From positions 120,001 through 152,000 of the forward strand of contig NZ_OMOH01000003.1 of assembly GCF_900289195.1 (NCBI RefSeq): 32,000 bases of DNA, read 5' to 3'. A program made the translations under genes and the position numbers. This DNA comes from Propionibacterium ruminifibrarum (GTDB lineage: Bacteria; Actinomycetota; Actinomycetes; Propionibacteriales; Propionibacteriaceae). Shown here in pieces: positions 1-20,501 of the stretch. The stretch's first letter is position 1; each line of letters opens with the position of its first letter. The notes under the pieces are model-generated. The model was not told where the DNA came from. It did no database searches and worked only from the letters and a program-made list of their open reading frames with translations.

Positions 1-95
1 AGCTGGATGACCAGGTCGAGCAGCAGGCAGGCAAGCGTGATGGCGGCCCACTCGGCAACGATCCTGCCGGTGATCCTCACTCCACTCGCAGCCAT
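1..95 (-). CDS. 5' end of an unidentified gene running off the left edge (hydrophobic N-terminus)
   Basis: Minus-strand ATG at 95..93 with AGGGG 5 nt upstream. Open to position 1. Translates MAASGVRITGRIVAEWAAITLACLLLDLVIQ. Too short for the ORF track and too short to classify. Confidence 0.3.
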   Translation of the reverse strand, partial: MAASGVRITGRIVAEWAAITLACLLLDLVIQ

Positions 96-136
96 GGCGG
101 CCCCTGGTATTCCTCGTGGCAATCAGTGCCAGTTTA

Positions 137-217
137 GTTCAGCTCGTCGTGGTCAGGGTGGACGTGCCGTCCGGGCTCGGGCGCACGCTCACCCGCTCGG
201 CGATGCGCTGCTTCATC
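137..217. repeat. Direct-repeat copy A: detached relic of the sbcC 3' end (last 25 codons plus stop)
   Basis: Aligns without gaps to 1656..1736 (offset 1519), 76/81 identical. Mismatches at 143, 178, 184, 198, 213. Minus strand still reads MKQRIAERVSVRPSPDGTSTLTTTS-stop, versus MQQRIAKRVSVRPSPDGTSTLTTTN-stop at the real sbcC end. Confidence 0.9.
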
Positions 218-313
218 GGTGCCTGTGTCTCAGCTAAGAAAAAAGTGGACAGCGTCCAGCGGGAAGTCACTAGGTGTTAACTGGGTACAAGATCACCATC
301 ACTGGATGGAGCA

Positions 314-1582
314 ATGCTAATGGCTAGAGGAACCTCGCTGGCAGGGCCGAACAAATTCGTGGGGTGGGGTATCTGCACCGCAGCATTCCCTTGGGTATTT
401 TTTATCATTCAATGTATCGAGCAAGTGTTTATATCGGTGCGTAATGCTCATGATATCAAGTCAACCATAGTCTCTTCTTTTTCGGGTTCTTTCTCTAGCT
501 TGAAAGGGTCAATGCCTGGAGAGCTCAGTGTAGTTCTGGCGCTGCTTACTGTTGAAGGCATTTTGATGGCTGCAGCGTCGGGGTTTAAGGGGGTTAAGTT
601 TAGACCATGGTCCAAGGTGCGAGGCGAGTCATTATTGACAATTACAAGTGAATATCAAAAAAGATGGTCAGCTTATATGGTGATAGCAGTCTTGGGATCC
701 TCTTCGGGGGTTGTGCTTTTTTGCGGCGTGGTTATCCTCTTTTCCAACCATGGCTTATTATTTGCATTAATCATGATTTGTCTGGCTGCTATGCATGTCG
801 TGGTGAATGTATTTCTCGTTTCGCTAGAGGCGGGTGACTTAAATGAATTTGCCCCGTATGTACTCTATTGCAAGCTCTTTCAGCGCGTAGTTGATGTTAA
901 AGCCGCTGGGCCGCTAAATCGCAGAGATAGCCCGACCGCTGTACCGGTCTTGGCTTATGCGTTGGCGGTGCTGGCGCTACTTCTGTTACCGGTGGTTCCG
1001 CTGATCGGGGTGATAGCTGTTGAGTGGGCTGAATTGCGCGAAGAATATAGATGGGTCTTTGTTGTGTGGGTCTTTGGGCCAGAAGTTGTATTGGCCTGTG
1101 TTGCCTTGTTTGTTGCCCGGTCATACTGGGGTGGCTGCCACTGGTCTGCCGACTATAGTGATAGCGCATCGAAGCGAGTCGCCGTATTGCTCATAGAGTG
1201 GGTGCTGTTTGGGGGTGTGGCTTTGTTCATGGTTCTGTCCCTATTAATATATCATGACGCGGGTGTGAGTGGATTGAGCATGATTCTCTTTGCATTGTCC
1301 GTGATGTGCAGTATCGTCGTAGCGTTCATGGCTGCTTCTCGCTCGGGGGTAATCTGGCGGCGCGGTCTGATGAATAAGCTTTGGAGTCAGATATATCATA
1401 TGGCTGGTCAACAATTCGTTCAGGGTCGTTCTGACCTTTTCAAGATGGACGGCGGCGCGTCACTTGACAGCGCCAATAAGGAGTTGTTGCGAATGTATTC
1501 CGCCAAAGATCGTGCTGAGCTGTCGGTGATCGCAAAACAGATTATTAATTGGGGGTATGACGGCTCCAATTCTGTGGGCTGA
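314..1582 (+). CDS. Orphan polytopic membrane protein (about 9-10 predicted TM helices plus ~80 aa soluble C-terminal tail), low-GC, family unknown
   Basis: 422-aa ORF, the only long ORF in a segment whose GC is far below its flanks (sampled lines ~38-50% against ~70%). Repeated long hydrophobic stretches. GGAG lies 2 nt before ATG 314 and 8 nt before ATG 320, so 320 may be the true start. No motif I recognise. Confidence 0.75.
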   Translation: MLMARGTSLAGPNKFVGWGICTAAFPWVFFIIQCIEQVFISVRNAHDIKSTIVSSFSGSFSSLKGSMPGELSVVLALLTVEGILMAAASGFKGVKFRPWSKVRGESLLTITSEYQKRWSAYMVIAVLGSSSGVVLFCGVVILFSNHGLLFALIMICLAAMHVVVNVFLVSLEAGDLNEFAPYVLYCKLFQRVVDVKAAGPLNRRDSPTAVPVLAYALAVLALLLLPVVPLIGVIAVEWAELREEYRWVFVVWVFGPEVVLACVALFVARSYWGGCHWSADYSDSASKRVAVLLIEWVLFGGVALFMVLSLLIYHDAGVSGLSMILFALSVMCSIVVAFMAASRSGVIWRRGLMNKLWSQIYHMAGQQFVQGRSDLFKMDGGASLDSANKELLRMYSAKDRAELSVIAKQIINWGYDGSNSVG

Positions 1583-1590
1583 TAGGTATG

Positions 1591-1630
1591 GCGGTATGCG
1601 CCACCCATGAAAACAGGTGGCGCATACCGC
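1591..1630. terminator. Perfect 15-bp stem hairpin, candidate bidirectional terminator between the membrane-protein gene and sbcC
   Basis: GCGGTATGCGCCACC (1591-1605), loop catgaaaaca, GGTGGCGCATACCGC (1616-1630), followed by gtttct. Sits 9 nt after the stop of the 314..1582 ORF and just 3' of the sbcC stop. Confidence 0.6.
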
Positions 1631-1655
1631 GTTTCTGGTGTTGCTCGTAGAACTG

Positions 1656-1736
1656 GTTCAGTTCGTCGTGGTCAGGGTGGACGTGCCGTCCGGGCTTGGG
1701 CGAACGCTCACCCGCTTGGCGATGCGCTGCTGCATC
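1656..1736. repeat. Direct-repeat copy B (the functional 3' end of sbcC)
   Basis: Partner of 137..217, 76/81 identical. Contiguous with the full-length sbcC reading frame. Confidence 0.9.
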
Positions 1737-4700
1737 TCGGCGACGTGGCTGATGACGCCGATGCAGCGCCCGCCCGCGCGCAGCTGTTCCAGCTGGCCCA
1801 TGACCGTGTCGAGGGCGTCGGCGTCGAGGCTGCCGAAGCCCTCGTCGATGAAGAGGCTGTTGAGTTCGATGCCCCCGGCCTCGCTCGTCACCGTGTCGGA
1901 CAGGCCGAGCGCCATCGCCAGCGAGGCCAGGAAGGTCTCGCCGCCCGACAGGGTGCGCGGGTCGCGTTCGGTGTCGACGGGCACGTGGTCGACGACGACC
2001 AGCCCCAGGCCCTGCCTGCGGGCCCGGCCCTCGCGCTCGTCGGTGCGGCGCAGGCTGTAGCGGCCGTGCGTCATCACCTCGAGGCGCTCGTTCGCCCGGT
2101 CGATGACCTGCTCGAACCGCTGCCGCAGCACGAAGGTCGGCAGCGTGACGCCCATGAGGTTCCGTTTGCCGGTGGCGTTGGCCAGCTCGGCCATGCGCAG
2201 GTACGGCTCGGCCCGCGGCCCGACGCGGGCGTACGCGGCCAGTGCGCGGTCCAGGCGCTCGGACGCCTGCCGGCCCTGCTTCAGCTGCGAGTTCGCCTCG
2301 CCCAACCGCTGCTGGGCGTCCTGCGCCTCCTGCTGGGCCCGTGCCGCCGCGGCGTCCAAGGCCTCCAGGTCTGGCTCGGGGGCCTGGGCGGCGGCCACCA
2401 GCTGCTCATCGGCGAGCAGGGTGCTCAATTCCGCGGCGCGCGCCTCGTACGCGATGATCCGGCTGGTGAGGGCCGTCAACTCGGCTTCGGGCAGGGCGGC
2501 CGCGAGTACCTGCCCCGGGTCGTCTGCGAAACCCTCATGGGCCATGGCCGCGAGGGCGGCGGCGCGTGTCACCGCGTACTCCCGGCGGGCCTGGACGAGC
2601 TGGTCCAGCGCCTGCTGCAGGGCGGTGATCTGGCTGGCGCGCGCCGCCAGTGACGCGGCCCTCTCAGCGACGCTGGTGAAGCCCTCCCGGGCCTGTGCGA
2701 CGCGGGCCTCGTCGCCGGCGAGCGAGTCCTGCGCGGCCCGGATGGCTTCGGCCAGCGCGGCCTGCCGGGCGGTGAGCGATGCGATCTCCGTTGCTGCCTG
2801 CTCCGCCTCGGCCCGCAGCTCCTCGGCCCTGGTGCCGAGCTGCCCGCGTCGGGTGACGGCGGCGGTGGCCTGGTCGACGGCCCGCTCCGCGTCGTCGGCC
2901 GCTGCCCGGGCCTGCTCGCCGGTCAGGCCCCCGGCGAGGCCCTGCTGCTCGGTGAGGTGGGCGGCGACCCGGTCGCACTCGGCCGTCGCCCGCATCAGGG
3001 CCCTGCCCTGCTCGGCGGACGCCTCGGCCAGCCGTTCGACGTCGTCCCTCGTCGGCGCGTCCGGGGCGAGGACCGCCGGGCTCGGGTGGTCCATCGCGCC
3101 ACACACCGGGCACGGCCTCCCGGGCGCCAGCTCGGCGGCCACCTCACCGGCCAGCCCGTCGAGCCAGCGGGCGCGGGCCGCCGCGTGCTCGGCCGTCGCG
3201 GACTCCGCCGCCAGCCTCGCCTCGTCCTCGGCGCCCCGCGCCAGTGCCAGGGTCTGCTGGTCGTCCTCGGCGGCCAGCGCGGCTTGGAGCCTCGCCGCCG
3301 CGGCCTGCTGGGCGGCCCTGGCGTCGGGCAGGCCATCGGCGGTGGCCGCCAGCTCCTCGGCCTCGGTCACGGCCTCCTCGCGTCGCCGCACCAGGTCGTC
3401 ACGGTCCTGCCTCAGCGCCGCCAGCTGTTCTCCGAGCGACGCGGCCTGGTCCTGCTGGGCCTCGATGTCCGTGCGCCGCCCGGTCAGTGACTGTTCCAGC
3501 TCGACCAGCTCGGTCAGGGCACCGCTGGACTGCTGGGCCTGCCCCAGCGCCTCGGCGAGGGCGGCCCGGGTGTCGGCGATGGCCGTGGGCTCGGCCTCGT
3601 CGGAGTGGCCGCCGCAGGCCTCGAAGCGCTGCGGCAGCGGGACGTCGGACAGGTCGCTCTGCTCGGCGGCCTGCTGCCGCCAGCCGTCGGAGGCCGCCTC
3701 GAGGCGCGCCCGCGCCGTCTCGGACGTGTTGAGCGGACCCTCGCAGCGGGCGGCACGTCGGGCGAGCCCGGCCCGTTCCCGGCAGGTCTCGACCTCGCCG
3801 GCCCGGGCGGCGTGCTCGGCCTGCTCCCGCTGCAGCCGGGCGTGGCGGTCGCGGTCGGCGGTGAGCCGGTGTCCCCGTTGGGCCCCCTCGCGGGCCGCGT
3901 CGGCCGTTCCGGCGGCCCGCTGGGAGGCCTCGTCGAGCCGATCGCGGCGGGCCCGCAGCGCCGAAAGACGCGCTCGGGCCAGGGCGCCGAGCGCGGTGAA
4001 CTCGCCCGTCTCGACGGCGGCCGTCATGGCCTGCGGGTCGTCGGCGGGGGAGGGGCCACCGGTCCCAGCAACGGAACCGCCGGTGTCCTCGGCGGGGCCA
4101 CCGGGAGTCCGGGCGGAGCCGACGGCAGCTCCGGCAAGGCCTCCGGCGTCCTCGGCAGGATCGTCGGCGCCCTCGGCGGGGAACAGGGCACGGTCGTGGG
4201 GAAGACCCGGCTGGGCAGCGGCCGGTTCGCCGTCGCCAGCAGCGGTTCCGCCTGACCCCGCGGCACTGGCCGGCGCCTGTTCGGCGTCGGCCGCGGCCGG
4301 CTCGGTGCCCTGCTCGGCTGATCCGGTGTCCGGCTGCGGCCAGGCGGCGTGGATGAACTCGGAGGCGGCGGAGGCCACCTGGTCGCGGACCTCCTGCACC
4401 CGGTCGGAGCGCTCCCTGGCGAGGCGTTTCAGCTCGTCGGCCAGCGACTCGTAGACCTGGGTGCCGAAGATCTGCTGCAGCACGTCGCGCCGCTCCTCGG
4501 CCTTGGCGCGCAGGAAGGTGGCGAACTGGCCCTGCGGCAGGACGACGGTCTGGGTGAACTGCTCCCGGCTCAACCCGATCGCGGCGCGCAGCTCGGCACT
4601 CGCCTCCTGAATGTTGGACGAGACGGCGACGCCCTCGGTGTCGGCGGGGTCGGACAGCTTCCACAGGGTGATGCGCGGGTTCTCGGTGGTGGTGCCCGCC

Positions 4701-5014
4701 CCGCGCCTCTTGGGACGCTCGTACCTGGGGGAGCGCCGCACCCTGTACAGGCCGCGGCTCGTGTCGACGACCAGCTCGACGTAGGGTTCGACGCCCGGTC
4801 TCAGGTGGGTGGACGCCAGCCGGTCGTTGCTCGACTCGCTGCCGGCCACCTGGCCGTAGAGGGCGAAGACGACGGCGTCGATGATCGTCGTCTTGCCCGA
4901 CCCCGTTGGTCCTTCGAGCAGGAACAGGCCGTTCTCGCCGAGCGCCTGGAAGTCGATGACCTCGCGGCCCGCATACGGGCCGATGCCGCACAGTTCGAGG
5001 CGGAGGATCTGCAT
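1658..5014 (-). CDS. sbcC: SbcC / Rad50-like exonuclease ATPase subunit (SMC-like)
   Basis: 1118 aa. N-terminal Walker A GPTGSGKTT. Long Ala/Glu/Arg-rich coiled-coil with a CPVCG zinc-hook motif. C-terminal signature LSGGETFLASLAMALGLS and Walker B LFIDEGFGSLD. Start is 1 nt after the sbcD stop. Confidence 0.93.
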   Translation of the reverse strand: MQILRLELCGIGPYAGREVIDFQALGENGLFLLEGPTGSGKTTIIDAVVFALYGQVAGSESSNDRLASTHLRPGVEPYVELVVDTSRGLYRVRRSPRYERPKRRGAGTTTENPRITLWKLSDPADTEGVAVSSNIQEASAELRAAIGLSREQFTQTVVLPQGQFATFLRAKAEERRDVLQQIFGTQVYESLADELKRLARERSDRVQEVRDQVASAASEFIHAAWPQPDTGSAEQGTEPAAADAEQAPASAAGSGGTAAGDGEPAAAQPGLPHDRALFPAEGADDPAEDAGGLAGAAVGSARTPGGPAEDTGGSVAGTGGPSPADDPQAMTAAVETGEFTALGALARARLSALRARRDRLDEASQRAAGTADAAREGAQRGHRLTADRDRHARLQREQAEHAARAGEVETCRERAGLARRAARCEGPLNTSETARARLEAASDGWRQQAAEQSDLSDVPLPQRFEACGGHSDEAEPTAIADTRAALAEALGQAQQSSGALTELVELEQSLTGRRTDIEAQQDQAASLGEQLAALRQDRDDLVRRREEAVTEAEELAATADGLPDARAAQQAAAARLQAALAAEDDQQTLALARGAEDEARLAAESATAEHAAARARWLDGLAGEVAAELAPGRPCPVCGAMDHPSPAVLAPDAPTRDDVERLAEASAEQGRALMRATAECDRVAAHLTEQQGLAGGLTGEQARAAADDAERAVDQATAAVTRRGQLGTRAEELRAEAEQAATEIASLTARQAALAEAIRAAQDSLAGDEARVAQAREGFTSVAERAASLAARASQITALQQALDQLVQARREYAVTRAAALAAMAHEGFADDPGQVLAAALPEAELTALTSRIIAYEARAAELSTLLADEQLVAAAQAPEPDLEALDAAAARAQQEAQDAQQRLGEANSQLKQGRQASERLDRALAAYARVGPRAEPYLRMAELANATGKRNLMGVTLPTFVLRQRFEQVIDRANERLEVMTHGRYSLRRTDEREGRARRQGLGLVVVDHVPVDTERDPRTLSGGETFLASLAMALGLSDTVTSEAGGIELNSLFIDEGFGSLDADALDTVMGQLEQLRAGGRCIGVISHVAEMQQRIAKRVSVRPSPDGTSTLTTTN

Positions 5015-5015
5015 C

Positions 5016-6239
5016 TCAACCCCGCCTCTCCGCTGCCTCGAGTGCCTCGGCCAGCACCTGGCGCTCGGCTTGGTTCGGCGGCTCGCCCGACACCTGCCCG
5101 ACGAAGTCCGCCGTCACGGCCAGGGGATCGTCTGCGCCCGGGGCGGCGCCCGCCGCAGACCGGCCGCGGCGACCGGTGGGTTCGAAGAGCACCTGCAGGG
5201 CGTGCGGGAACACCTTCTTGACCTCGTGCACGAGATTGTCGGGCCGGGACTCGCCGGTGACGGTGACCCGCACCCAGTCCTCGCGCCGGGCGGCGAACCG
5301 CGGGCCGAGCACCTCGTCGAGGCTTCCGGCCACGTCGGACAGCCGCCGGGGCACCGGCGCGGGGACGAGCCGCACGCCGGCCACCGCGCCCGAGTCGTCG
5401 AAGTCGACGACGGCCGTGGACTTGCGGTGGTCCTTCTCGGAGAACGAGAACGCCAGCGGCGAGCCCGCGTAGCGCATGACCGGCGCCGGACGCGCCCCGC
5501 CTCCGCCCCGTTCCTGCGGGTCACGGGAGCCGGCGACGGCCTGCGGGCCGTGCAGGTGCCCGAGCGCGACGTAGTCGGCGCCGACCGACGAGAACAGGGC
5601 GGCCGGCACCGAGTCGACGCCGCCGATGCGCAGATCGCGCTCGGACTCGCTGGGCCGCCCGCCCGTGACGAACTCGTGCGCCATGACCACGGCCGGCACC
5701 CGCTCGGCGCCGCCGGACCGGCGGGCGGCCAGGTCGTCTCGGACGAGCCGCAGGGCGGCACCGACGACCGCCTCGTGCGAGCGGGCCAGCGGCTCGTCCG
5801 AACCCGCCGCGGCGGCCAGCCCGGCCCGCGTCATGTCGGGGTCGAGATAGGGCAGCGCGTAGACGAGCAGCCCCGTCGCCCCGTCGGCGGCCGGCACCGT
5901 CACCGGCGTCGCCACAGCCGCCGGGCGGGCGCAGATGTGCAGCCGTTCGCCGAGCAGCCCGGCGTTGAGACCCAGGCGCTGAGGGCTGTCGTGGTTGCCC
6001 GGCGTGACGACCACGCAGGCGATCTCGCACAGTCTCGCGAGCGCCCGGTCGAGCAGTTCGACGGCGGCGACGGGCGGCAGCGCCCGGTCGAAGACGTCAC
6101 CGCTGACGAGCACGGCGTCGACCCGCTCCGCGGCGGCCAGGTCGGCGAGATGGTCGAGGAACCGCTCGTGGGCGTCGGACAGGTCGACCCCGTGCAGGGT
6201 GCGGCCCAGGTGCCAGTCGCTCGTGTGCAGGATCCTCAT
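5016..6239 (-). CDS. sbcD: SbcD / Mre11-like nuclease subunit
   Basis: Track ORF 5016..6521 trimmed to the ATG at 6239, giving MRILHTSDWHLGRTLHG (canonical SbcD N-terminus). Calcineurin-like phosphoesterase motifs include GDVFD and GNHD. The upstream 94 codons are Arg-rich junk. Confidence 0.92.
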   Translation of the reverse strand: MRILHTSDWHLGRTLHGVDLSDAHERFLDHLADLAAAERVDAVLVSGDVFDRALPPVAAVELLDRALARLCEIACVVVTPGNHDSPQRLGLNAGLLGERLHICARPAAVATPVTVPAADGATGLLVYALPYLDPDMTRAGLAAAAGSDEPLARSHEAVVGAALRLVRDDLAARRSGGAERVPAVVMAHEFVTGGRPSESERDLRIGGVDSVPAALFSSVGADYVALGHLHGPQAVAGSRDPQERGGGGARPAPVMRYAGSPLAFSFSEKDHRKSTAVVDFDDSGAVAGVRLVPAPVPRRLSDVAGSLDEVLGPRFAARREDWVRVTVTGESRPDNLVHEVKKVFPHALQVLFEPTGRRGRSAAGAAPGADDPLAVTADFVGQVSGEPPNQAERQVLAEALEAAERRG

Positions 6240-6295: not shown

Positions 6296-6805
6296 TCAGG
6301 CGACGCCGATCCTGTGCAGCCACGCGGTGACCGCCTTGGCGTTGGCGGCCGCTTCGAGGCGGGTCCCCGGCTTCCAGTCGCCGGTGTCGTCGAGGGCGGC
6401 GAGCCGGGTCGCGCTGCTGCCGACCGGTGAGGAGTACGAGGTGCAGAACGGCACGACGGTCTTGCCCGAGAAGTCGTTCTGCCGGACGAAGTCGTCGAGC
6501 ACCCAGGCGGCCTCGCCCCACCAGACGGGGTAGCCGACGAGGACGGTGCGGTAGTCGGCGAAGCCGTCGGGGGTGGTGCTCACCAGCTCCACGTGACGCT
6601 TGCCCGGATCGTCGTGCTCCCTGGAGACCCTGCTGCGGGGGTCGTTGTAGTTCAGGTCCGCCTCGCTGTAGGGGTCGGCGGGGGTGAGGACGAAGGTGTC
6701 GGCGCCGAGCGTCTTGGCGACGGTCTCGGCGACCCGGCCGGTGTGCCCGTGAGCCGAGTAGTACGCGACGAGGACCGAGGAGCCGGATGCGTTCGGAGTG
6801 CTCAT
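6296..6805 (-). CDS. Flavodoxin-family protein (cytoplasmic, short-chain flavodoxin-like fold)
   Basis: Track ORF trimmed to the ATG at 6805 (GGAAGG 8 nt upstream). Reads MSTPNASGSSVLVAYYSAHGHTGRVAE...LVGYPVWWGEAAWVLDDF...GKTVVPFCTS. Pattern recalled for the flavodoxin_4-type family. Paralogous to 14246..14926. Confidence 0.78.
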   Translation of the reverse strand: MSTPNASGSSVLVAYYSAHGHTGRVAETVAKTLGADTFVLTPADPYSEADLNYNDPRSRVSREHDDPGKRHVELVSTTPDGFADYRTVLVGYPVWWGEAAWVLDDFVRQNDFSGKTVVPFCTSYSSPVGSSATRLAALDDTGDWKPGTRLEAAANAKAVTAWLHRIGVA

Positions 6806-7062
6806 GTCATGCCTTCCTGATGGGTGCGCGCGGTCGACGACGCCATGTCTGGTGGTCGTCACCTGGATGGGGTCTGACGTGGATGCTGTGGGCGTGGCCG
6901 GGGACGTGTCGAAGTGCCCAGTCGCCTGGCTGCAGCAGATGCCTGCCTCGGCATTGCTGCCGGCATCGCGGTGACCGCAGGGCAGTTTACCCCCGTCGCC
7001 GTGCGGATCGTGGTCCTGAACCCGACTGCCGGGCACCGGTCAGGGACGGTTCGCCCCGGACG

Positions 7063-11246: not shown

Positions 11247-12014
11247 ATGACACCGTCATTCGACATCTCGGGCAGGCTGGCCCTCGTCACCGGTTCGGCC
11301 AGGGGCCTGGGGAACGTGTACGCGCGGGGTCTCGCCGCGGCGGGCTGCGATGTCGTCGTCCATGGCCGTAACCCGGACGCGGTGGCCGAACAGGTCGATG
11401 ACATCGCGCGGACCTACCGGGTCAAGGCCCACCCATGCGTCGTCGACGTGGCGGACCGTGACCGCGTCGCCCAGGCCATCGGGGCCCTCATCGACGAGGT
11501 CGGTGCGCCCGACATCCTGGTCAACAACGCCGGTGTCCAGCGCAGGGCGCCGTTCCACGAGTTCCCCGTCGAACAGTGGGACGAGGTCATCGGCACCAAC
11601 CTGAGTGGCGTGTTCTACGTGTCACGGGCCGTCGCCCCGGCAATGGTGGAGCGGGGCTCCGGCAAGATCATCAACATCGGCTCCGTCGTCACCGTTCTCG
11701 CACGCCAGACGCTGCCGCCGTACACGGCCGCCAAGGGCGGCATCGCGATGCTCACGAAGGAGATGGCGGCCGATCTGACCAGGTACAACATCCAGGTCAA
11801 CGCCATCTCGCCCGGCTACTTCCGCACCGAGATGAACACGGCCCTCATCAACGACCCCGAGTTCGACGCCTGGGTGGTCCAGCGGACCCCGGCCCGACGG
11901 TGGGGCGAGCCGGAGGAACTGCTCGGAACCCTGGTGTATCTCGCCTCCCCGGCCTCGGACTTCGTCACCGGCCAGAACATCCTCGTCGACGGGGGCATGA
12001 CCTCGGTGCTGTGA
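11247..12014 (+). CDS. SDR-family oxidoreductase, gluconate 5-dehydrogenase / 5-keto-D-gluconate reductase (IdnO/KduD-like)
   Basis: 255 aa. TGSARGLG cofactor motif, NNAG, catalytic Ser...YTAAK (YxxxK), C-terminal VDGG. GGAGGGAAG RBS upstream. Divergent from the ManD operon. Confidence 0.88.
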   Translation: MTPSFDISGRLALVTGSARGLGNVYARGLAAAGCDVVVHGRNPDAVAEQVDDIARTYRVKAHPCVVDVADRDRVAQAIGALIDEVGAPDILVNNAGVQRRAPFHEFPVEQWDEVIGTNLSGVFYVSRAVAPAMVERGSGKIINIGSVVTVLARQTLPPYTAAKGGIAMLTKEMAADLTRYNIQVNAISPGYFRTEMNTALINDPEFDAWVVQRTPARRWGEPEELLGTLVYLASPASDFVTGQNILVDGGMTSVL

Positions 12015-12627
12015 GCCCCGGATGCCAGGCGCGCGGCCGGCGTCGAGCGCCCCGATCACGACCTGGATGAATCCCGCCGGCTCAATCTGCGGGCGGCCGA
12101 GCTGCTCGACATCGTCCAGGACGAGATCGTCGCCCAGGGCTCGGACGGGCGCTGATCCGGCGGGGTGCCGCCCGGCCCCGCCTCCAGGATGGCTGCGGAC
12201 CACCCGGCCTGCACTCGCGTGGCCTCGGCGGGTGCGCGCCGCCCGCCGGGCAGCCGGTGCCCGGCGTGTCCTCGACTCGTGCGGGGGCGTCGTCCATGGT
12301 GCGCATCCAGCGCGGCAGCGCCGCATCGACCGGGATTCTCGGGGGATTCACCAAGGGCGCAGGAAAGCCTCACTTAAATACGAGCATGTCCTTTTCCAGG
12401 CCGTGGTGGTCAAGCCCCCAGGGCCATTGTTCAATTATTCCAAGTGCATTCGAAAAATATTACGGACCGTTGTCGATCAATAATTATTAATTCATAAAAA
12501 ACCCTCTGACAAGGTGTAACAATGAGTTATTGGCGACAAGGTCAGCCTGTGCTGTCTTGCGGGCGAGTTGCGGAAGGGGAAGAGTTATAGATATCAGAAG
12601 TGACACCCGGAACATCTGAGAGGATGA

Positions 12628-12906
12628 ATGATCATGACTGCCATCGCCCCCGTCACAACCTGCGCCACCACCGCCTGCGCCTTCAACAATGGCGGCTGCA
12701 CCGCATTCGCCGTCACGGTCGGCAGCAAGCCTGTCTGCCAGACCCTGGCCGTTCTCGATGCCCGCGCCGGCCTCGCCGAGGCCAACGGCCAGGTTGGTGC
12801 CTGCCAGTGCATCGAGTGCGTCCACAACAAGGACCTCATGTGCACCGCCGAGAGCGTGAGCTTCGGCGCCGAGGGCGCCCCCTGCCTGAGCTACGAGGTC
12901 GCCTGA
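12628..12906 (+). CDS. DUF1540 domain protein (small Cys-rich, two repeats)
   Basis: 92 aa: CATTACAFNNGGCTAFAVTV...C and GACQCIECVHNKDLMCTAESVSF...C, the two-repeat Cys pattern recalled for DUF1540. GAGAGGA at 12618-12624 fits the ATG at 12634 better (9 nt spacing), so the true start may be 12634. Confidence 0.78.
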   Translation: MIMTAIAPVTTCATTACAFNNGGCTAFAVTVGSKPVCQTLAVLDARAGLAEANGQVGACQCIECVHNKDLMCTAESVSFGAEGAPCLSYEVA

Positions 12907-12948
12907 TCTGAGCGGTTTCACCGGGGATGCCCGGTGAGTGATCATTCC

Positions 12949-12986
12949 ATTGGGGCCCCTGCCGATCATTCGGCAGGGGCCCCAAT
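12949..12986. terminator. Strong bidirectional terminator hairpin (17-bp perfect stem, 4-nt loop)
   Basis: ATTGGGGCCCCTGCCGA tcat TCGGCAGGGGCCCCAAT, between the convergent genes ending at 12906 (+) and 13013 (-). A second 7-bp hairpin, CACCGGG gatg CCCGGTG, lies just upstream at about 12919-12936. Confidence 0.7.
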
Positions 12987-13012
12987 GCGGTGTGTGCGAG
13001 GCGGGATGAGAG

Positions 13013-13855
13013 TCAGCCGAGGGTCGGTGCCGTGCGGGAGGCCAGCTGCTGAAGGGCTGAGTCCAGTGCCGCCATGGAGTCGACGGGGGAGTCGAATGGG
13101 GCGAAGAAGGTACTCGTCTGGGTCGGCTCCACCGTCATGAGCGTCAGGCCGTAGCGGTCGACGTCGACGCAGTAGATGCGGTTCCAGGTGTGCGGGCACC
13201 CCGCGGTCACGGTGTGTCGCGAACAGATGCGGCCCGCGATGCGCTCGTCGTCGATGGCGTCGGCGATGTTCCACAGGGCGTCCTCGCCGAGGGCCATTGC
13301 TGCGTCGAAGGCCTCGAACTCGTCCTCGATGGTGGGGAAGGGCATGCTGGAACTGGTCTCCATCAGGGTGCCGAAGGCCATCGGGGTGACGCCCGTGGAA
13401 TCGTGCAGCAGCACGCGCTGGGTCCGGATGACGCCCAGCCGACCGTGCGGATGGGCGACGGTGGCGGCCACCCGGGGCGGCAGCTGGCCGTCGGCCAGCA
13501 GCTGCGCCGAGACCTGCAGGGGCATCCACTCGAGGGTGCCTAGCAGGTGCACGGCCGAGGAGATGATGTGTACGCCCGGCTCCTGCGAGGCCTTGGTGAC
13601 GTCGAGGCGAACGGCGATCGACTCGGTCAGCGGCATCTCGGCGACCTCGTCGCCCGGAGTGGGACAACAGGCCACGACGATGCGGCCGGATCTCGTCAGG
13701 CCGTGCGCGAGGAACTCAATACTGACCTGGGGGTCCTGGCGGTATGCGAGCAATGACCCGCAGCCGGAACCACAGAGCAACCGGTAGGCGATCGACTGGG
13801 TGCGTCCCACGAGTGCGTCGGTTGTCGCCGCACCCGCCTCCGGTACCAGGGACAT
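13013..13855 (-). CDS. Hypothetical protein, DUF2470-like (actinobacterial family ending in a ...DRYGL.L... motif)
   Basis: 280-aa ORF with high third-position GC. GGAAGGA 7 nt before the ATG at 13855. C-terminal VDVDRYGLTLMTVE and overall layout resemble DUF2470-type proteins as recalled. The family assignment is tentative. Confidence 0.7.
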   Translation of the reverse strand: MSLVPEAGAATTDALVGRTQSIAYRLLCGSGCGSLLAYRQDPQVSIEFLAHGLTRSGRIVVACCPTPGDEVAEMPLTESIAVRLDVTKASQEPGVHIISSAVHLLGTLEWMPLQVSAQLLADGQLPPRVAATVAHPHGRLGVIRTQRVLLHDSTGVTPMAFGTLMETSSSMPFPTIEDEFEAFDAAMALGEDALWNIADAIDDERIAGRICSRHTVTAGCPHTWNRIYCVDVDRYGLTLMTVEPTQTSTFFAPFDSPVDSMAALDSALQQLASRTAPTLG

Positions 13856-14245
13856 GTCGGGATCCTTCCGTCGGGAAGCGTCGCTCCTGTCATGGAACGC
13901 TTAGGCGAGCCTAATCTGTAGATCCCCGAATGGGAAGATCGAGTCTGCTCTTCGGACGGGAAATTCGCTCGAAAGCGGAACCGGGTCGCTGCTCGGCGGG
14001 CATGCGCGCCTGGTCGATCATGCATGAAACGCATGACTCAAGGCTTCGATGCGCATAGCGGAGAGCTTCCATGGCGGGCCGCTGATTTCATAATCATGCT
14101 TCATGACAGTAAGGGGCCGTCATGCGTTGCCAACAGGGGATTCGATACCACGCGGACGTCTGGCGTCCGTGCTCGTGAGCTGTCGAGGCCCGGCGCCGCG
14201 ACCTGTCAACCGGGCCATGAGCCCCCACCGAACAACAGAGGTTCC

Positions 14246-14926
14246 ATGAAACGCACAAGAATCATCACTCTCGTCGCCGTCCTCGCCGTCCTGGCCGCCG
14301 CGCTGCTCGGCTATGACCTGCTCCGTCGCGGATCCGATGCCGCTTCGCCTGCCCGGGGCCAGTCCGATAGCGGCGCCGCCGAGTCGGCGAACCCATCGGC
14401 CGCCGGATCGGACGCGGGCGACTCCAAGATCCTCATCGTCTACTTCTCCCGCACCGAGGGCGTCTACGACGGTCCGCTCGATGTCGGGCACACCAAGGTC
14501 GTGGCCGACTTCATCCAGGCCCGCACCGGCGCCGACGAATACGAGATCGTGCCCGCCACCGATTACCCGACCGACTACCAGAGCACCACCGAGATCGCCC
14601 AGGCCGAGCAGAACGAGGACGCCCGTCCGGCCATCGCCAACCCGCTGCCCGACGTCGCCGACTACGACACCGTCTTCATCGGGGCGCCGATCTGGTGGGG
14701 CGAGTACCCGATGATCGTGAGAACCTTCATGGACGGCGTCGACCTGAACGGGAAGACGCTCGTACCGTTCACGACCCACGAGGGCTCCGGTCTCGGGACG
14801 ACCCAGAGTCAGCTCGCCGCCCAGTATCCTGATGCGACCGTTCTTGACGGACTGGGCGTACGGGGCGGCGAGGCCGAGTCCAGCCGGCCCGACGTGGATG
14901 AGTGGCTCGAGGGGCTCGGGTTCTGA
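14246..14926 (+). CDS. Exported / membrane-anchored flavodoxin-family protein
   Basis: Track ORF trimmed to the ATG at 14246 (AGAGG 5 nt upstream). MKRTRIITLVAVLAVLAAALLG is a signal or anchor sequence. It is followed by a ~40-aa Ser/Ala/Gly/Asp linker and then a flavodoxin core, KILIVYFSRTEG...VFIGAPIWWGEYPMIV...GKTLVPFTTHEGSG. Confidence 0.8.
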   Translation: MKRTRIITLVAVLAVLAAALLGYDLLRRGSDAASPARGQSDSGAAESANPSAAGSDAGDSKILIVYFSRTEGVYDGPLDVGHTKVVADFIQARTGADEYEIVPATDYPTDYQSTTEIAQAEQNEDARPAIANPLPDVADYDTVFIGAPIWWGEYPMIVRTFMDGVDLNGKTLVPFTTHEGSGLGTTQSQLAAQYPDATVLDGLGVRGGEAESSRPDVDEWLEGLGF

Positions 14927-14947
14927 ACCGGTCGGGTTTCACGCAGC

Positions 14948-15628
14948 ATGTTCAGGCATCACCCCATTGAGTGGTACCTGGCATGGGCCGTCGTCCTCGT
15001 CGCGGCGCCCATGCCATTGGTCTACACGCTGAACATCTCGATGGTCGACGCCCCGCCCCGGCTACTCGTCCACGACCTCGGGGCGGCCGCCTACACGTGG
15101 TGGCTGGTGGCCGTTGCGTTGTCGAGCCGGCCGCGCTGGATCGACCGGATGATCGGGCTGCCGGCCGTCTACACGATGCACGCCGTCCTCGGTGTGCTCG
15201 CCCTGGGGGCCGCCACCGCGCACGTGCTCGCCTCGTTCACGATGCACCCGGTCATCCGCTGGACCGGACGGATCGCGTGGTACCTGGCGATCTTCGGTGT
15301 GCTGTACGCGGGCCTGTTCATGAGCGGCCTGCTCGTCGACCGGCTGCCCCGAGCCGCCAGGCTGAAGGCCAAGGCCGAACGCGTCCTGGCGCATCGGGTC
15401 TCGGTATGGGTCCACCGGCTCAACCTCGTCGCGATCATTCTCATTCTGGTGCACGTCCATGTCATCCCGAGGGTGGCGCGGGCCACCGGCTTCGTCGTCG
15501 CCATGGACATCTACACCTTCGTGGCCTTGGCCGCCTACGTCTGGGGGCGATTCGCCGCTCCGGCGCTCCGGCCGAACCGTGGTGTCGTCATGCGAACGAG
15601 ACGCTCGGGCGGCATACCCGTAGGCTGA
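14948..15628 (+). CDS. Ferric-reductase-like (NOX/FRE/YedZ-type) transmembrane heme domain, N-terminal part of a frameshifted gene
   Basis: 226 aa and about 6 TM. Two His pairs with NOX-type spacing: H-x13-H in YTMHAVLGVLALGAATAHVL and H-x12-H in VHRLNLVAIILILVHV. Ends at a TGA at 15626-15628, while the FAD/NAD domain continues in the -1 frame. Confidence 0.8.
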   Translation: MFRHHPIEWYLAWAVVLVAAPMPLVYTLNISMVDAPPRLLVHDLGAAAYTWWLVAVALSSRPRWIDRMIGLPAVYTMHAVLGVLALGAATAHVLASFTMHPVIRWTGRIAWYLAIFGVLYAGLFMSGLLVDRLPRAARLKAKAERVLAHRVSVWVHRLNLVAIILILVHVHVIPRVARATGFVVAMDIYTFVALAAYVWGRFAAPALRPNRGVVMRTRRSGGIPVG

Positions 15629-15660
15629 GCATCGAACTCGACGGCAGGACGCCGGCCCCC

Positions 15661-16251
15661 ATGGCCGGTGACTACTACTTCATATCGGTGCACGGCGTGC
15701 CGGGAGTGACGACCGAGTCGCACCCGTTCTCCGTCACCTTCGCGCCCTCGGGGGAGCGCGGCAGGACGGTGGACTTCACGATCCGGGAGGCCGGTGACTT
15801 CACCGGAACCGTCGAGATGATCCCCGTGGGCGCTGATGTCGTCCTGGAGGGCCCCTTCGGCCGTTTCGGACCGGTCATCGAGGCCACGAACCCGTCACGA
15901 CGACTGGTGCTGGTGGGTATGGGTACGGGGATCGCCCCGCTGATCGGTATCGCCCAGCAGTACGCCGGGGTGCGGCCGGTCACCGTTCTTCGCACTGTCC
16001 GCTCACCGGGCGATCTGCACGATGATGCCCTGCTGGCGAGGCTCGCCGAGGAGCATGAGTCATTCGTCTACGAGCGCCGCGTGCACCGCTGGGACGCCGC
16101 CCAGGTGACTGCATGCATCGCTCCCGAGGACCTGAGGACCGCACTGTTCATCGTGGTGGGTCCGGCGCCGGCGGTACTCGGCGCGCGCCGCATGCTGCGC
16201 GGCATTGGTGTTCCCTCGCGGCACATCGAGGACGAACGGCTCACGATGTGA
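15661..16251 (+). CDS. FAD/NAD(P)-binding ferredoxin-reductase-type domain, C-terminal part of the same frameshifted gene
   Basis: Frame of track ORF 14971..16251. HPFSVTF (flavin-binding HPF[ST]) and GMGTGIAP (nucleotide-binding). The first ATG in frame is 15661, but domain-like sequence (HANETLGRHTRRLSIELDG...) already starts near 15589 with no start codon. Confidence 0.7.
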   Translation: MAGDYYFISVHGVPGVTTESHPFSVTFAPSGERGRTVDFTIREAGDFTGTVEMIPVGADVVLEGPFGRFGPVIEATNPSRRLVLVGMGTGIAPLIGIAQQYAGVRPVTVLRTVRSPGDLHDDALLARLAEEHESFVYERRVHRWDAAQVTACIAPEDLRTALFIVVGPAPAVLGARRMLRGIGVPSRHIEDERLTM

Positions 16252-20413: not shown

Positions 20414-20501
20414 TGGCGGAGGATACGAGATTCGAACTCGTGAGGGCGTGAACCCAACCCGCTTTCCAAGCGAGCGCCATAGGCCTCTAGGCGAATCCTC
20501 C
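20414..20501 (-). tRNA. tRNA-Ser (anticodon GGA), encoded CCA end
   Basis: Minus strand: GGAGGAT acceptor stem, D arm, anticodon stem CTCGC/GCGGG with loop TTGGAAA (GGA), long variable arm, T arm ACGAG-TTCGAAT-CTCGT, ATCCTCC-G-CCA. 88 nt. Confidence 0.92.

Follow-up and report, generated by a model that had tools for sequence, protein, structure and literature searches.

A strain-specific single-gene cassette bracketed by a duplicated sbcC 3' end in Propionibacterium ruminifibrarum JV5

We analyzed a window of 32,000 nt from Propionibacterium ruminifibrarum JV5 (NZ_OMOH01000003.1, positions 120,001-152,000 of the forward strand; GCF_900289195.1), together with contigs that were fetched for comparison and are numbered here as L loci. 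Between sbcC and a small membrane-protein gene, the window carries a low-GC cassette with a single ORFan gene, bracketed by two copies of the sbcC 3' end. The cassette is a real, polymorphic, strain-specific insertion in the JV5 lineage. As to its origin, we lean, with some reserve, toward installation by host recombination rather than by a site-specific integrase, that is, toward an "insertion with long target duplication" at a slot resembling a minimal mobile element.

An insertion at the 3' end of sbcC

The cassette is delimited by a direct repeat at positions 137-217 and 1656-1736, the two copies of which have a spacing of 1519 nt and are identical at 76 of 81 positions. The 34-nt identical core of the repeat was found exactly twice in the window, compared to 0 occurrences expected from 100 shuffles. 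Each copy consists of 76 nt of coding sequence (25 codons plus 1 nt), a TGA stop codon, and 2 nt past the stop, and both copies keep frame and stop intact on the minus strand, where the stops lie at 139-141 (left copy) and 1658-1660 (right copy). The five differences between them amount to three replacements (Q/K, K/E, and N/S) and two synonymous changes (GTT/GTG and CCA/CCG). The right copy (1656..1736, minus strand) is now the working end of sbcC (1658..5014, minus strand), an intact gene encoding an SMC-family ATPase of 1,118 aa (Pfam AAA_23 and SbcC_Walker_B) that matched the JV5 protein SPF67891.1 exactly. The left copy (137..217, minus strand), made of 25 codons and TGA at 141-139, followed by AC, is an orphan. 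Beyond it come a 43-nt spacer (96..138, minus strand; AC TAAACTGGCACTGATTGCC...GGGGCCGCC) and the 65-aa small membrane-protein gene PROPJV5_0843, of which the window holds the 5' part (1..95, minus strand, ATG at 95-93), the full gene being present in L001 and L024. This gene is the downstream neighbor that defines the slot, and its homologues adjoin sbcC in every related lineage found.

The foreign DNA inserted between the two copies (218..1655, plus strand) measures 1,438 bp and has a GC content of 49.4%, compared to 70.8% in the rest of the window; for the cassette and the genome as a whole, the values are 49% and 71%. The GC content at third codon positions (GC3) is 52% in the cassette open reading frame (ORF) versus 92% in sbcC. 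Judged by these values, the composition of the cassette is un-ameliorated. The cassette frame runs through 433 stop-free codons, while the maximum reached in 2,000 shuffles was 276 and the other five frames contain 14 to 31 stops; on this coding evidence, we regard the ORF as a real gene for a polytopic membrane protein. The gene (PROPJV5_0844; 320..1582, plus strand; WP_147385343.1, SPF67890.1) is preceded by a GGAG, read from the sequence as a ribosome-binding site (308..311, plus strand) 8 nt upstream of ATG-320, and encodes 420 aa with, by hydropathy, some 8 to 9 hydrophobic helices and a soluble C-terminal tail of about 80 aa. Both a word-indexed search of 5.8 billion clusters and a phmmer search against 1.84 billion representatives matched only the protein itself, and Pfam, PADLOC, PHROGs, and NCBIfam gave no match. 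At the DNA level, the cassette likewise had no match in plasmid and phage collections (blastn "distant" mode). A single-sequence AlphaFold model reached a predicted local distance difference test score (pLDDT) of 43, too poor for a fold search, and to assign the protein a role in, say, phage exclusion or transport would be guesswork.

A perfect hairpin with a 15-bp stem (1591..1630), extendable to 18 bp on the minus strand, separates the ORFan gene from sbcC, with which it is convergent. Its predicted RNA folds reached -33.5 kcal/mol (z -4.3) on the plus strand and -36.3 kcal/mol (z -6.8) on the minus strand, and it probably acts as a bidirectional terminator. These results bear out what a first-pass annotation, made from the sequence alone, had described, namely, a direct repeat of the sbcC 3' end with two intact reading frames and stops, five differences of the kinds listed above, and a low-GC interval holding only one membrane-protein gene and a 15-bp-stem hairpin.

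The sbcC protein falls into a 90%-identity cluster of nine members from metagenome-assembled genomes and rumen metagenomes, and the contigs of five variants were fetched (L003-L010). Across sbcCD, these loci match the window at about 98.8% identity, but both the cassette and the duplication are missing from them; a 159-aa flavodoxin-like gene begins 9 nt past their sbcC stop, with the 65-aa gene about 210 nt further on. A search for variants of the 65-aa protein turned up the empty site itself, on the metagenome scaffold L023 (ENA ERZ28567010), where sbcC is followed by a 43-nt spacer (AC TAAACTGGC...GGGGCTGCC) and then by the 65-aa gene. The orphan copy and bases 96-138 of the window are colinear with this site, bases 96..138 aligning with the L023 spacer at 1560-1602, which points to an ancestral, native spacer in JV5. 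Compared to the single-copy target in L023, the orphan copy is identical at 79/81 positions and the live copy at 76/81. The first-pass annotation had called for just such a site, with sbcC running directly into the gene that starts at position 95, and had reckoned with the possibility that all relatives might share the duplicated arrangement. Since the predicted empty site exists in L023, and other relatives carry the flavodoxin-like gene instead, the JV5 structure is an insertion and not an ancient fixed arrangement.

The same annotation had allowed for an assembly artifact. A second strain (GCA_040307615.1, L001) was assembled independently and shows the identical structure, with one contig crossing both junctions, so the JV5 arrangement is not an artifact. 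The two strains differ by 6 single-nucleotide polymorphisms (SNPs) in 3.2 kb, and their ORFan proteins differ by one amino acid (P to S). In addition, a Logan assembly (L002) reaches across the left junction and through most of the cassette.

Overall, the slot between sbcC and the 65-aa gene has at least four states in nature: empty (L023); occupied by the flavodoxin-like gene without an orphan copy, as in ten relatives (L003-L010 and, from a third lineage, L016 and L017); occupied by a flavodoxin-like gene with an orphan copy, as in Propionibacterium australiense (L011 and L018-L022); and occupied by the ORFan gene with an orphan copy (JV5, L001, and L002). No decayed orphan copy was detectable in the intergenic regions of the L003 and L016 types, where scores were at chance, and these regions are not homologous to the intergenic region of P. 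australiense. The gene that follows sbcC in these relatives is Flavodoxin_5-like (L003 8345-8824). L023 is itself a mosaic, its sbcC part being 97.7 to 98.7% identical to all P. ruminifibrarum-type loci and its side with the 65-aa gene and nhaA only 90 to 93% identical. An apparent extension of the JV5 repeat past the stop (ACGAGCAACACCAG versus ACGAGGAATACCAG, 12/14 matching after an indel) was marginal, as 10 of 500 shuffles reached its score; it found no support in L023 and was not used.

Pfam, PHROGs, NCBIfam, and PADLOC revealed no integrase, transposase, or other recombinase in the cassette, and none was found in the rest of the 32-kb window, the genes of which include those for a major facilitator superfamily transporter, dehydrogenases, flavodoxins, threonine dehydratase, a multicopper-oxidase-like protein, and RecR. 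Extension to the left, which the first-pass annotation had proposed as a way to reveal an integrase, gave none in the 2.8 to 5 kb adjoining the window (via L001, L003, and L006). There was likewise no integrase downstream of sbcC in five related species, and 2.9 million viral contigs yielded no copy of the sbcC end resembling an attP. The cassette lacks terminal inverted repeats and arm-type repeats: within 100-1780, inverted repeats are limited to the internal hairpin and a palindrome of 11 nt in the ORF (600-615), neither of them at a cassette end. The earlier statement that the cassette has no integrase, transposase, or terminal inverted repeat thus stands. A DNA transposon, insertion sequence, or miniature inverted-repeat transposable element was rejected, both for want of terminal inverted repeats and for a duplication that is 81 bp long and diverged instead of shorter than about 15 bp. 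A diversity-generating retroelement was rejected too: the window holds no reverse transcriptase, and the differences are not confined to adenines of a template. With the orphan copy taken as template, A accounts for one of the five sites, and with the live copy as template for three of the five, T and C sites having changed as well. A prophage remnant was also considered and rejected.

Recurrence of the event and origin of the two copies

In six loci of P. australiense (L011 and L018-L022; 10603-11343 in L011), a flavodoxin-like gene is bracketed by the sbcC end and an orphan copy of it. Because it is bracketed in this way, the flavodoxin-like gene is itself a cassette installed with a duplicated sbcC end. 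The orphan, conserved in all six loci, is 93 nt long and about 90% identical, with a 1-nt indel. An extra piece of 31 nt corresponds to the Walker-B region, 190 nt ahead of the stop, and the P. australiense orphan was probably once longer, at least 190 nt, and later shortened by an 81-nt internal deletion. It is followed by TGA-AC-TAGGCTGG... and then by the small gene; this spacer (AC-TA..CTGG) is homologous to the spacer of the window, none of 500 shuffles reaching the score of the alignment. In both JV5 and P. australiense, homology between the copies ends 0 to 2 nt past the stop. Upstream, the duplication extends to -79 in JV5 versus at least -92, and probably -190, in P. australiense, bearing in mind that two elements sharing one crossover point may still differ in how far their homology reaches. 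By these alignments, the same kind of event has taken place at this slot at least twice, with different upstream boundaries.

We then asked which of the two JV5 copies is native. The orphan copy differs from the sbcC end of L008 at 1/79 positions and from that of the empty site L023 at 2/79, and it agrees with all relatives at four of the five sites that separate the two copies. The live copy, in contrast, differs from every sampled sbcC end at no fewer than 5/79 positions. Its bases at 1717, 1703, 1697, and 1662 occur in no relative, in no other species, and in neither of the P. australiense copies. With five private SNPs, the last 79 nt of the live sbcC reach the maximum of any 79-nt interval in the 5.3 kb of sbcCD, which places this density in the top 0.36% of intervals (Poisson 9e-6 against a background of 0.34%). 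These comparisons are better accounted for if the insertion displaced the native end, now the orphan, and if the divergent copy is a replacement that has become the working end. The junction would then lie within the first 4 to 19 nt of the repeat (1736-1718). The first-pass annotation had suggested one native and one imported end rather than a fresh duplication, and the asymmetry of the copies (1 to 2/79 versus at least 5/79) favors this view over a fresh duplication without proving it; a rare G common to both copies (1691/172) and the diverged haplotype of the slot, both of which are taken up below, tell against a firm direction of import.

A scan of genome contigs with the sbcC C terminus returned five species loci only, none with the K...N end of the live copy. 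Metagenome pattern scans for the divergent and the generic sbcC ends were both empty. They carry little weight, since the pattern GACGGCACNTCCACCCTGACCACGACGA had no match although the JGI contigs L005 and L009 contain it; the metagenome contig collection is evidently without these contigs, which makes its negatives uninformative for this clade.

The upstream edge of the live copy (1718-1736, minus strand; GATGCAGCAGCGCATC), at the presumed junction, coincides exactly with an inverted repeat of 5 bp, GATGC-N6-GCATC, for which the orphan copy reads GATGA...GCATC. This inverted repeat was dropped as a meaningful signal, since 5 bp is too short and is expected by chance. An upstream GTG in frame with the orphan end opens a 43-aa ORF (MTSRWTLSTFFLAETQAPMKQRIAERVSVRPSPDGTSTLTTTS; 139-270, minus strand) that is probably not expressed. 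A possible minus-strand mini-terminator at 246-258, a weak hairpin with a T-run, was rejected because it folds no better than shuffles.

Routes of installation and the surrounding sequence

We favor a host-recombination route on account of three features, the end of homology anchored at the stop, the variable upstream boundary, and the mosaic structure of sbcC. As for the first, homology that ends at the stop in both events is what would be expected if the donor were the sbcC locus of another genome, with similarity ending along with the coding sequence. As for the last, 18 of the 41 differences private to the window with respect to its relatives fall within 2236-2725 (3.7% versus a background of about 0.3%), and the only 5 sbcC differences between JV5 and L001 all lie in 1892-2003, where L001 has the L008 allele. 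Both intervals look like short homologous-recombination tracts, and a mosaic of this kind suggests that homologous exchange is active here.

Along this route, 1.44 kb of foreign DNA, comprising the ORFan gene, its own ribosome-binding site, and the hairpin, would have entered the slot between sbcC and the 65-aa gene in the JV5 lineage. The incoming DNA would already have carried a diverged sbcC end joined to the cargo. On one side, it would have paired homologously with sbcC, and on the other, an illegitimate junction would have formed 79 nt before the stop codon, whether through homology-facilitated illegitimate recombination or through a Campbell-type single crossover of a circle. Integration of foreign DNA using homology at one end only is known from the former process (PMC3240628), and experiments have shown that inter-chromatid integration can create duplications (Johnston et al. 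2013, PMC3784515). As a result, sbcC would have been made complete by the proximal copy, and the original end would have been left orphaned between the cassette and the 65-aa gene. Later recombination between the two copies could delete the cassette and restore the empty site.

Several observations weigh against this scenario. To begin with, 81 bp at 94% identity is a poor RecA substrate, and the model needs an earlier step in which low-GC DNA was joined to a Propionibacterium sbcC end. A donor lineage with a K...N sbcC end was not found among the nine cluster members and the five species loci or by the metagenome pattern scan. Moreover, both copies share the rare G at 1691/172, otherwise seen only in L016, as well as the AC after the stop, which fits in situ duplication as well as import from a close relative. 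The 65-aa gene of JV5 is about 6% diverged from its relatives and the intergenic sequence beyond it is unalignable, with nhaA back to about 1%; on this comparison, the whole JV5 slot haplotype appears to be old or imported, and the private SNPs of the live copy could then simply belong to the sbcC end of that haplotype, which would make the orphan the odd copy. The four private changes of the live copy are all at C of the same (plus) strand, three C>T and one C>A, and such a C-only pattern could be the product of single-strand damage during in situ duplication. Finally, the negative results for recombinases span the cassette, the window, its flanks, and the species loci, and a trans-acting recombinase encoded elsewhere in the JV5 genome would fall outside that scope.

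Some of these points would be accounted for if the target had been duplicated in situ, the foreign DNA having been caught where the sbcC 3' end had suffered a staggered double-strand break or a fork had stalled in it, with later fill-in of the single-stranded 81-nt overhangs. The copies would have been identical at first, and single-strand damage or error-prone fill-in would have put clustered changes into one of them. We consider this doubtful. The G and the AC common to both copies are what it predicts, and no donor with a divergent end is known, but random staggered breaks leave the ends of both events, 0 to 2 nt after the stop, unexplained. The restriction of the four private changes to C is typical of single-strand DNA damage, with a chance probability of about 0.06 to 0.12; against this, all four or five changes are in the copy under selection and none in the unconstrained orphan, for which the probability at equal rates is about 0.03 to 0.06. 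In addition, the repeats are identical in both cassette strains, thus indicating that divergence is not ongoing. In situ duplication is also the model implied for the published class of long target duplications, which its authors linked to double-strand breakage (PMC2853133).

Alternatively, a recombinase acting in trans could have moved the cassette, the 81-bp copies then being attL and attR of a non-autonomous cassette, comparable to cis-mobilizable elements (CIMEs) or pseudo-staphylococcal cassette chromosome (pseudo-SCC) elements, or of a decayed element whose attP bore a replacement sbcC end. This, too, strikes us as unlikely. Crossover would be placed at the upstream edge of the identity block, and the geometry is indeed that of integrases that target gene 3' ends, with identity from the first 4 to 19 nt of the repeat to just past the stop; yet neither the cassette nor the 32-kb window encodes an integrase, and none turned up in the left flank or, in the five related species, downstream of sbcC. 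The foreign variants all lie in the live copy and the native ones all in the orphan, but at 94% identity the copies are unlike newly formed att sites, which do not normally differ across the core. The GATGC-N6-GCATC at the upstream edge of the live copy would suit such a site, though so short a match is expected by chance, and the cassette has no arm-type repeats. Use of one slot twice, in JV5 and in P. australiense, counts in its favor, but the upstream boundary is not the same in the two cassettes, and it is unlikely that two elements would each decay to exactly one gene with both att sites kept. Viral contigs held no attP-like copy, and the cassette DNA was unmatched in the plasmid and phage collections.

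The first-pass annotation had likened the two copies to attL and attR. The missing recombinase, the missing attP-like copy, the lack of arm-type and inverted repeats, and the different boundary in P. australiense all speak against a site-specific recombinase at these ends. Among the three origins which that annotation had offered, import by homologous recombination is the one we favor and a cassette mobilized in trans is possible, while a decayed island is the least likely, because two separate islands would have had to decay to exactly one gene each.

A bolder proposal is that the sbcC 3' end in the clade of P. ruminifibrarum and P. australiense is a dedicated attachment site for integrase-less single-gene cassettes with replacement ends, moved by a trans-acting recombinase or by break repair linked to SbcCD and the adjacent perfect palindrome. 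We hold this to be quite improbable; such a gene-tail cassette-capture system, if true, would follow a logic like that of integrons or SCC with a different architecture. That nothing moved at all, the structure being an ancient, fixed, clade-wide duplication or an assembly artifact, is scarcely credible in the face of polymorphism within the species, an existing empty site, an independent second-strain assembly across both junctions, and an un-ameliorated cassette composition.

Upstream of sbcC lies sbcD (5016..6239, minus strand), a nuclease gene of the Metallophos family (Pfam Metallophos and SbcD_C) whose start was set by analogy with the 407-aa gene called in the relatives L003-L007. Flavodoxin-family genes are abundant nearby: a Flavodoxin_4 gene is found upstream of sbcD (6296-7036, minus strand), and a 300-aa protein with a C-terminal Flavodoxin_4 domain is encoded at 14024-14926 (plus strand). 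In the interval 12000-16000, GC content drops somewhat, to 64 to 68%, and ORFs at 12487-12969, 13013-13855, and 14948-15628 have no Pfam match. A tRNA-Ser(GGA) gene at 20414-20501 has no integrase beside it. To the left of the window, alignment of the JV5 lineage with its relatives, otherwise 99% identical, fails at two places, the intergenic region between the 65-aa gene and nhaA (L001 2548-2678; about -110 to -240 in window coordinates) and the sequence beyond nhaA, where a different gene is present (L001 1-440; beyond about -2350). These two stretches suggest further variable slots.

Comparison with known systems

The "insertion with long target duplication" is a documented class (Nobusato et al. 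2000, as cited in Furuta, Abe & Kobayashi 2010, NAR 38:2428; PMC2853133). As portrayed in the latter paper, the class comprises foreign units without mobility genes between imperfect direct target repeats of 24 to 423 bp, with a criterion of at least 30 bp; the repeats are often imperfect (384/412 and 368/393) and may overlap a gene 3' end, and there is one actinobacterial case, from Clavibacter (PMC2853133). The published cases all carry restriction-modification (R-M) genes, and the paper connects the process with DNA breakage induced by R-M systems (PMC2853133). The JV5 cassette resembles them in its deviant GC content, in having an empty site (L023), and in repeats of more than 30 bp that each align to a single-copy target. 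It is also alike in its size (1,438 bp, below 20 kb), and in the lack of any mobile-element gene in or beside it, its neighbors being housekeeping genes. Unlike those cases, it carries just one ORFan gene, for a membrane protein that shows no sign of a nuclease or methylase, so that the R-M cargo of the class is missing. It differs further in that the duplication ends 2 nt past the stop and serves as a replacement gene end, in that one copy is markedly more diverged than the other, and in that the slot was hit twice, the second time in a sister species. The JV5 insertion is thus within the structural class of long target duplications and outside its R-M-specific definition.

The case therefore extends the long-target-duplication class past R-M systems, and its non-R-M cargo weakens the idea of R-M-induced breakage and points to a general host-recombination route. 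It offers a natural example of a new gene gained without mobile-element machinery and without damage to a host housekeeping gene, complete with an empty site, two occupied states, and a parallel in a sister species. The asymmetry of the copies and the boundary anchored at the stop provide clues to mechanism in a culturable rumen isolate, and the 420-aa membrane protein, without a relative among some 15 billion predicted proteins, is a candidate for studies of ORFan origin.

The minimal mobile elements of Neisseria (Saunders & Snyder 2002; Snyder et al. 2007) offer a second comparison, made here on the definition quoted in PMC3082526. By that quoted definition, the sbcC slot is similar in having two conserved flanking genes with different whole-gene cassettes between them and no mobility genes, and its flanks show mosaic recombination tracts. 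Minimal mobile elements are exchanged by double crossover in the flanks and need no duplication, whereas here two slot states have a duplicated gene end, which implies a single-homology or misaligned event. The mosaic SNP tracts in sbcC and the divergent JV5 slot haplotype, bounded by core sequence of about 99% identity, are compatible with incorporation by homologous recombination in the flanks, but a simple double crossover does not explain the duplication. To our knowledge, natural competence is not known for Propionibacterium.

CIMEs are att-flanked, integrase-less remnants mobilized by integrative and conjugative elements, for example, at the fda 3' end in Streptococcus thermophilus, and pseudo-SCC elements occupy the rlmH/orfX 3' end in staphylococci. 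The former are listed as a category in ICEberg 2.0 (PMC6323972). The JV5 cassette is like both in being a recombinase-less cassette at the 3' end of a housekeeping gene, with direct repeats that reconstitute the gene. The repeats of CIMEs and pseudo-SCC elements are true att sites of a known integrase or Ccr, and autonomous relatives use the same site, whereas neither such an enzyme nor an autonomous relative was found for the sbcC slot, where, in addition, the upstream boundary varies between the two cassettes.

Homology-facilitated illegitimate recombination and transformation-induced merodiploidy (PMC3240628; PMC3784515) show that inter-chromatid or misaligned integration can give rise to duplications in the absence of a dedicated recombinase. 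They are laboratory phenomena of competent species or of Escherichia coli conjugation and serve as a mechanistic analogy only; such events typically delete recipient DNA or duplicate 100 to 900 kb, unlike the neat 81-bp duplication in JV5. Compared to all of these systems, what is new here is the non-R-M ORFan cargo, a duplication that supplies the gene with a replacement end, the unequal divergence of the two copies, and the recurrence at the slot in a sister species, and the case is a tidy natural instance rather than a new kind of system.

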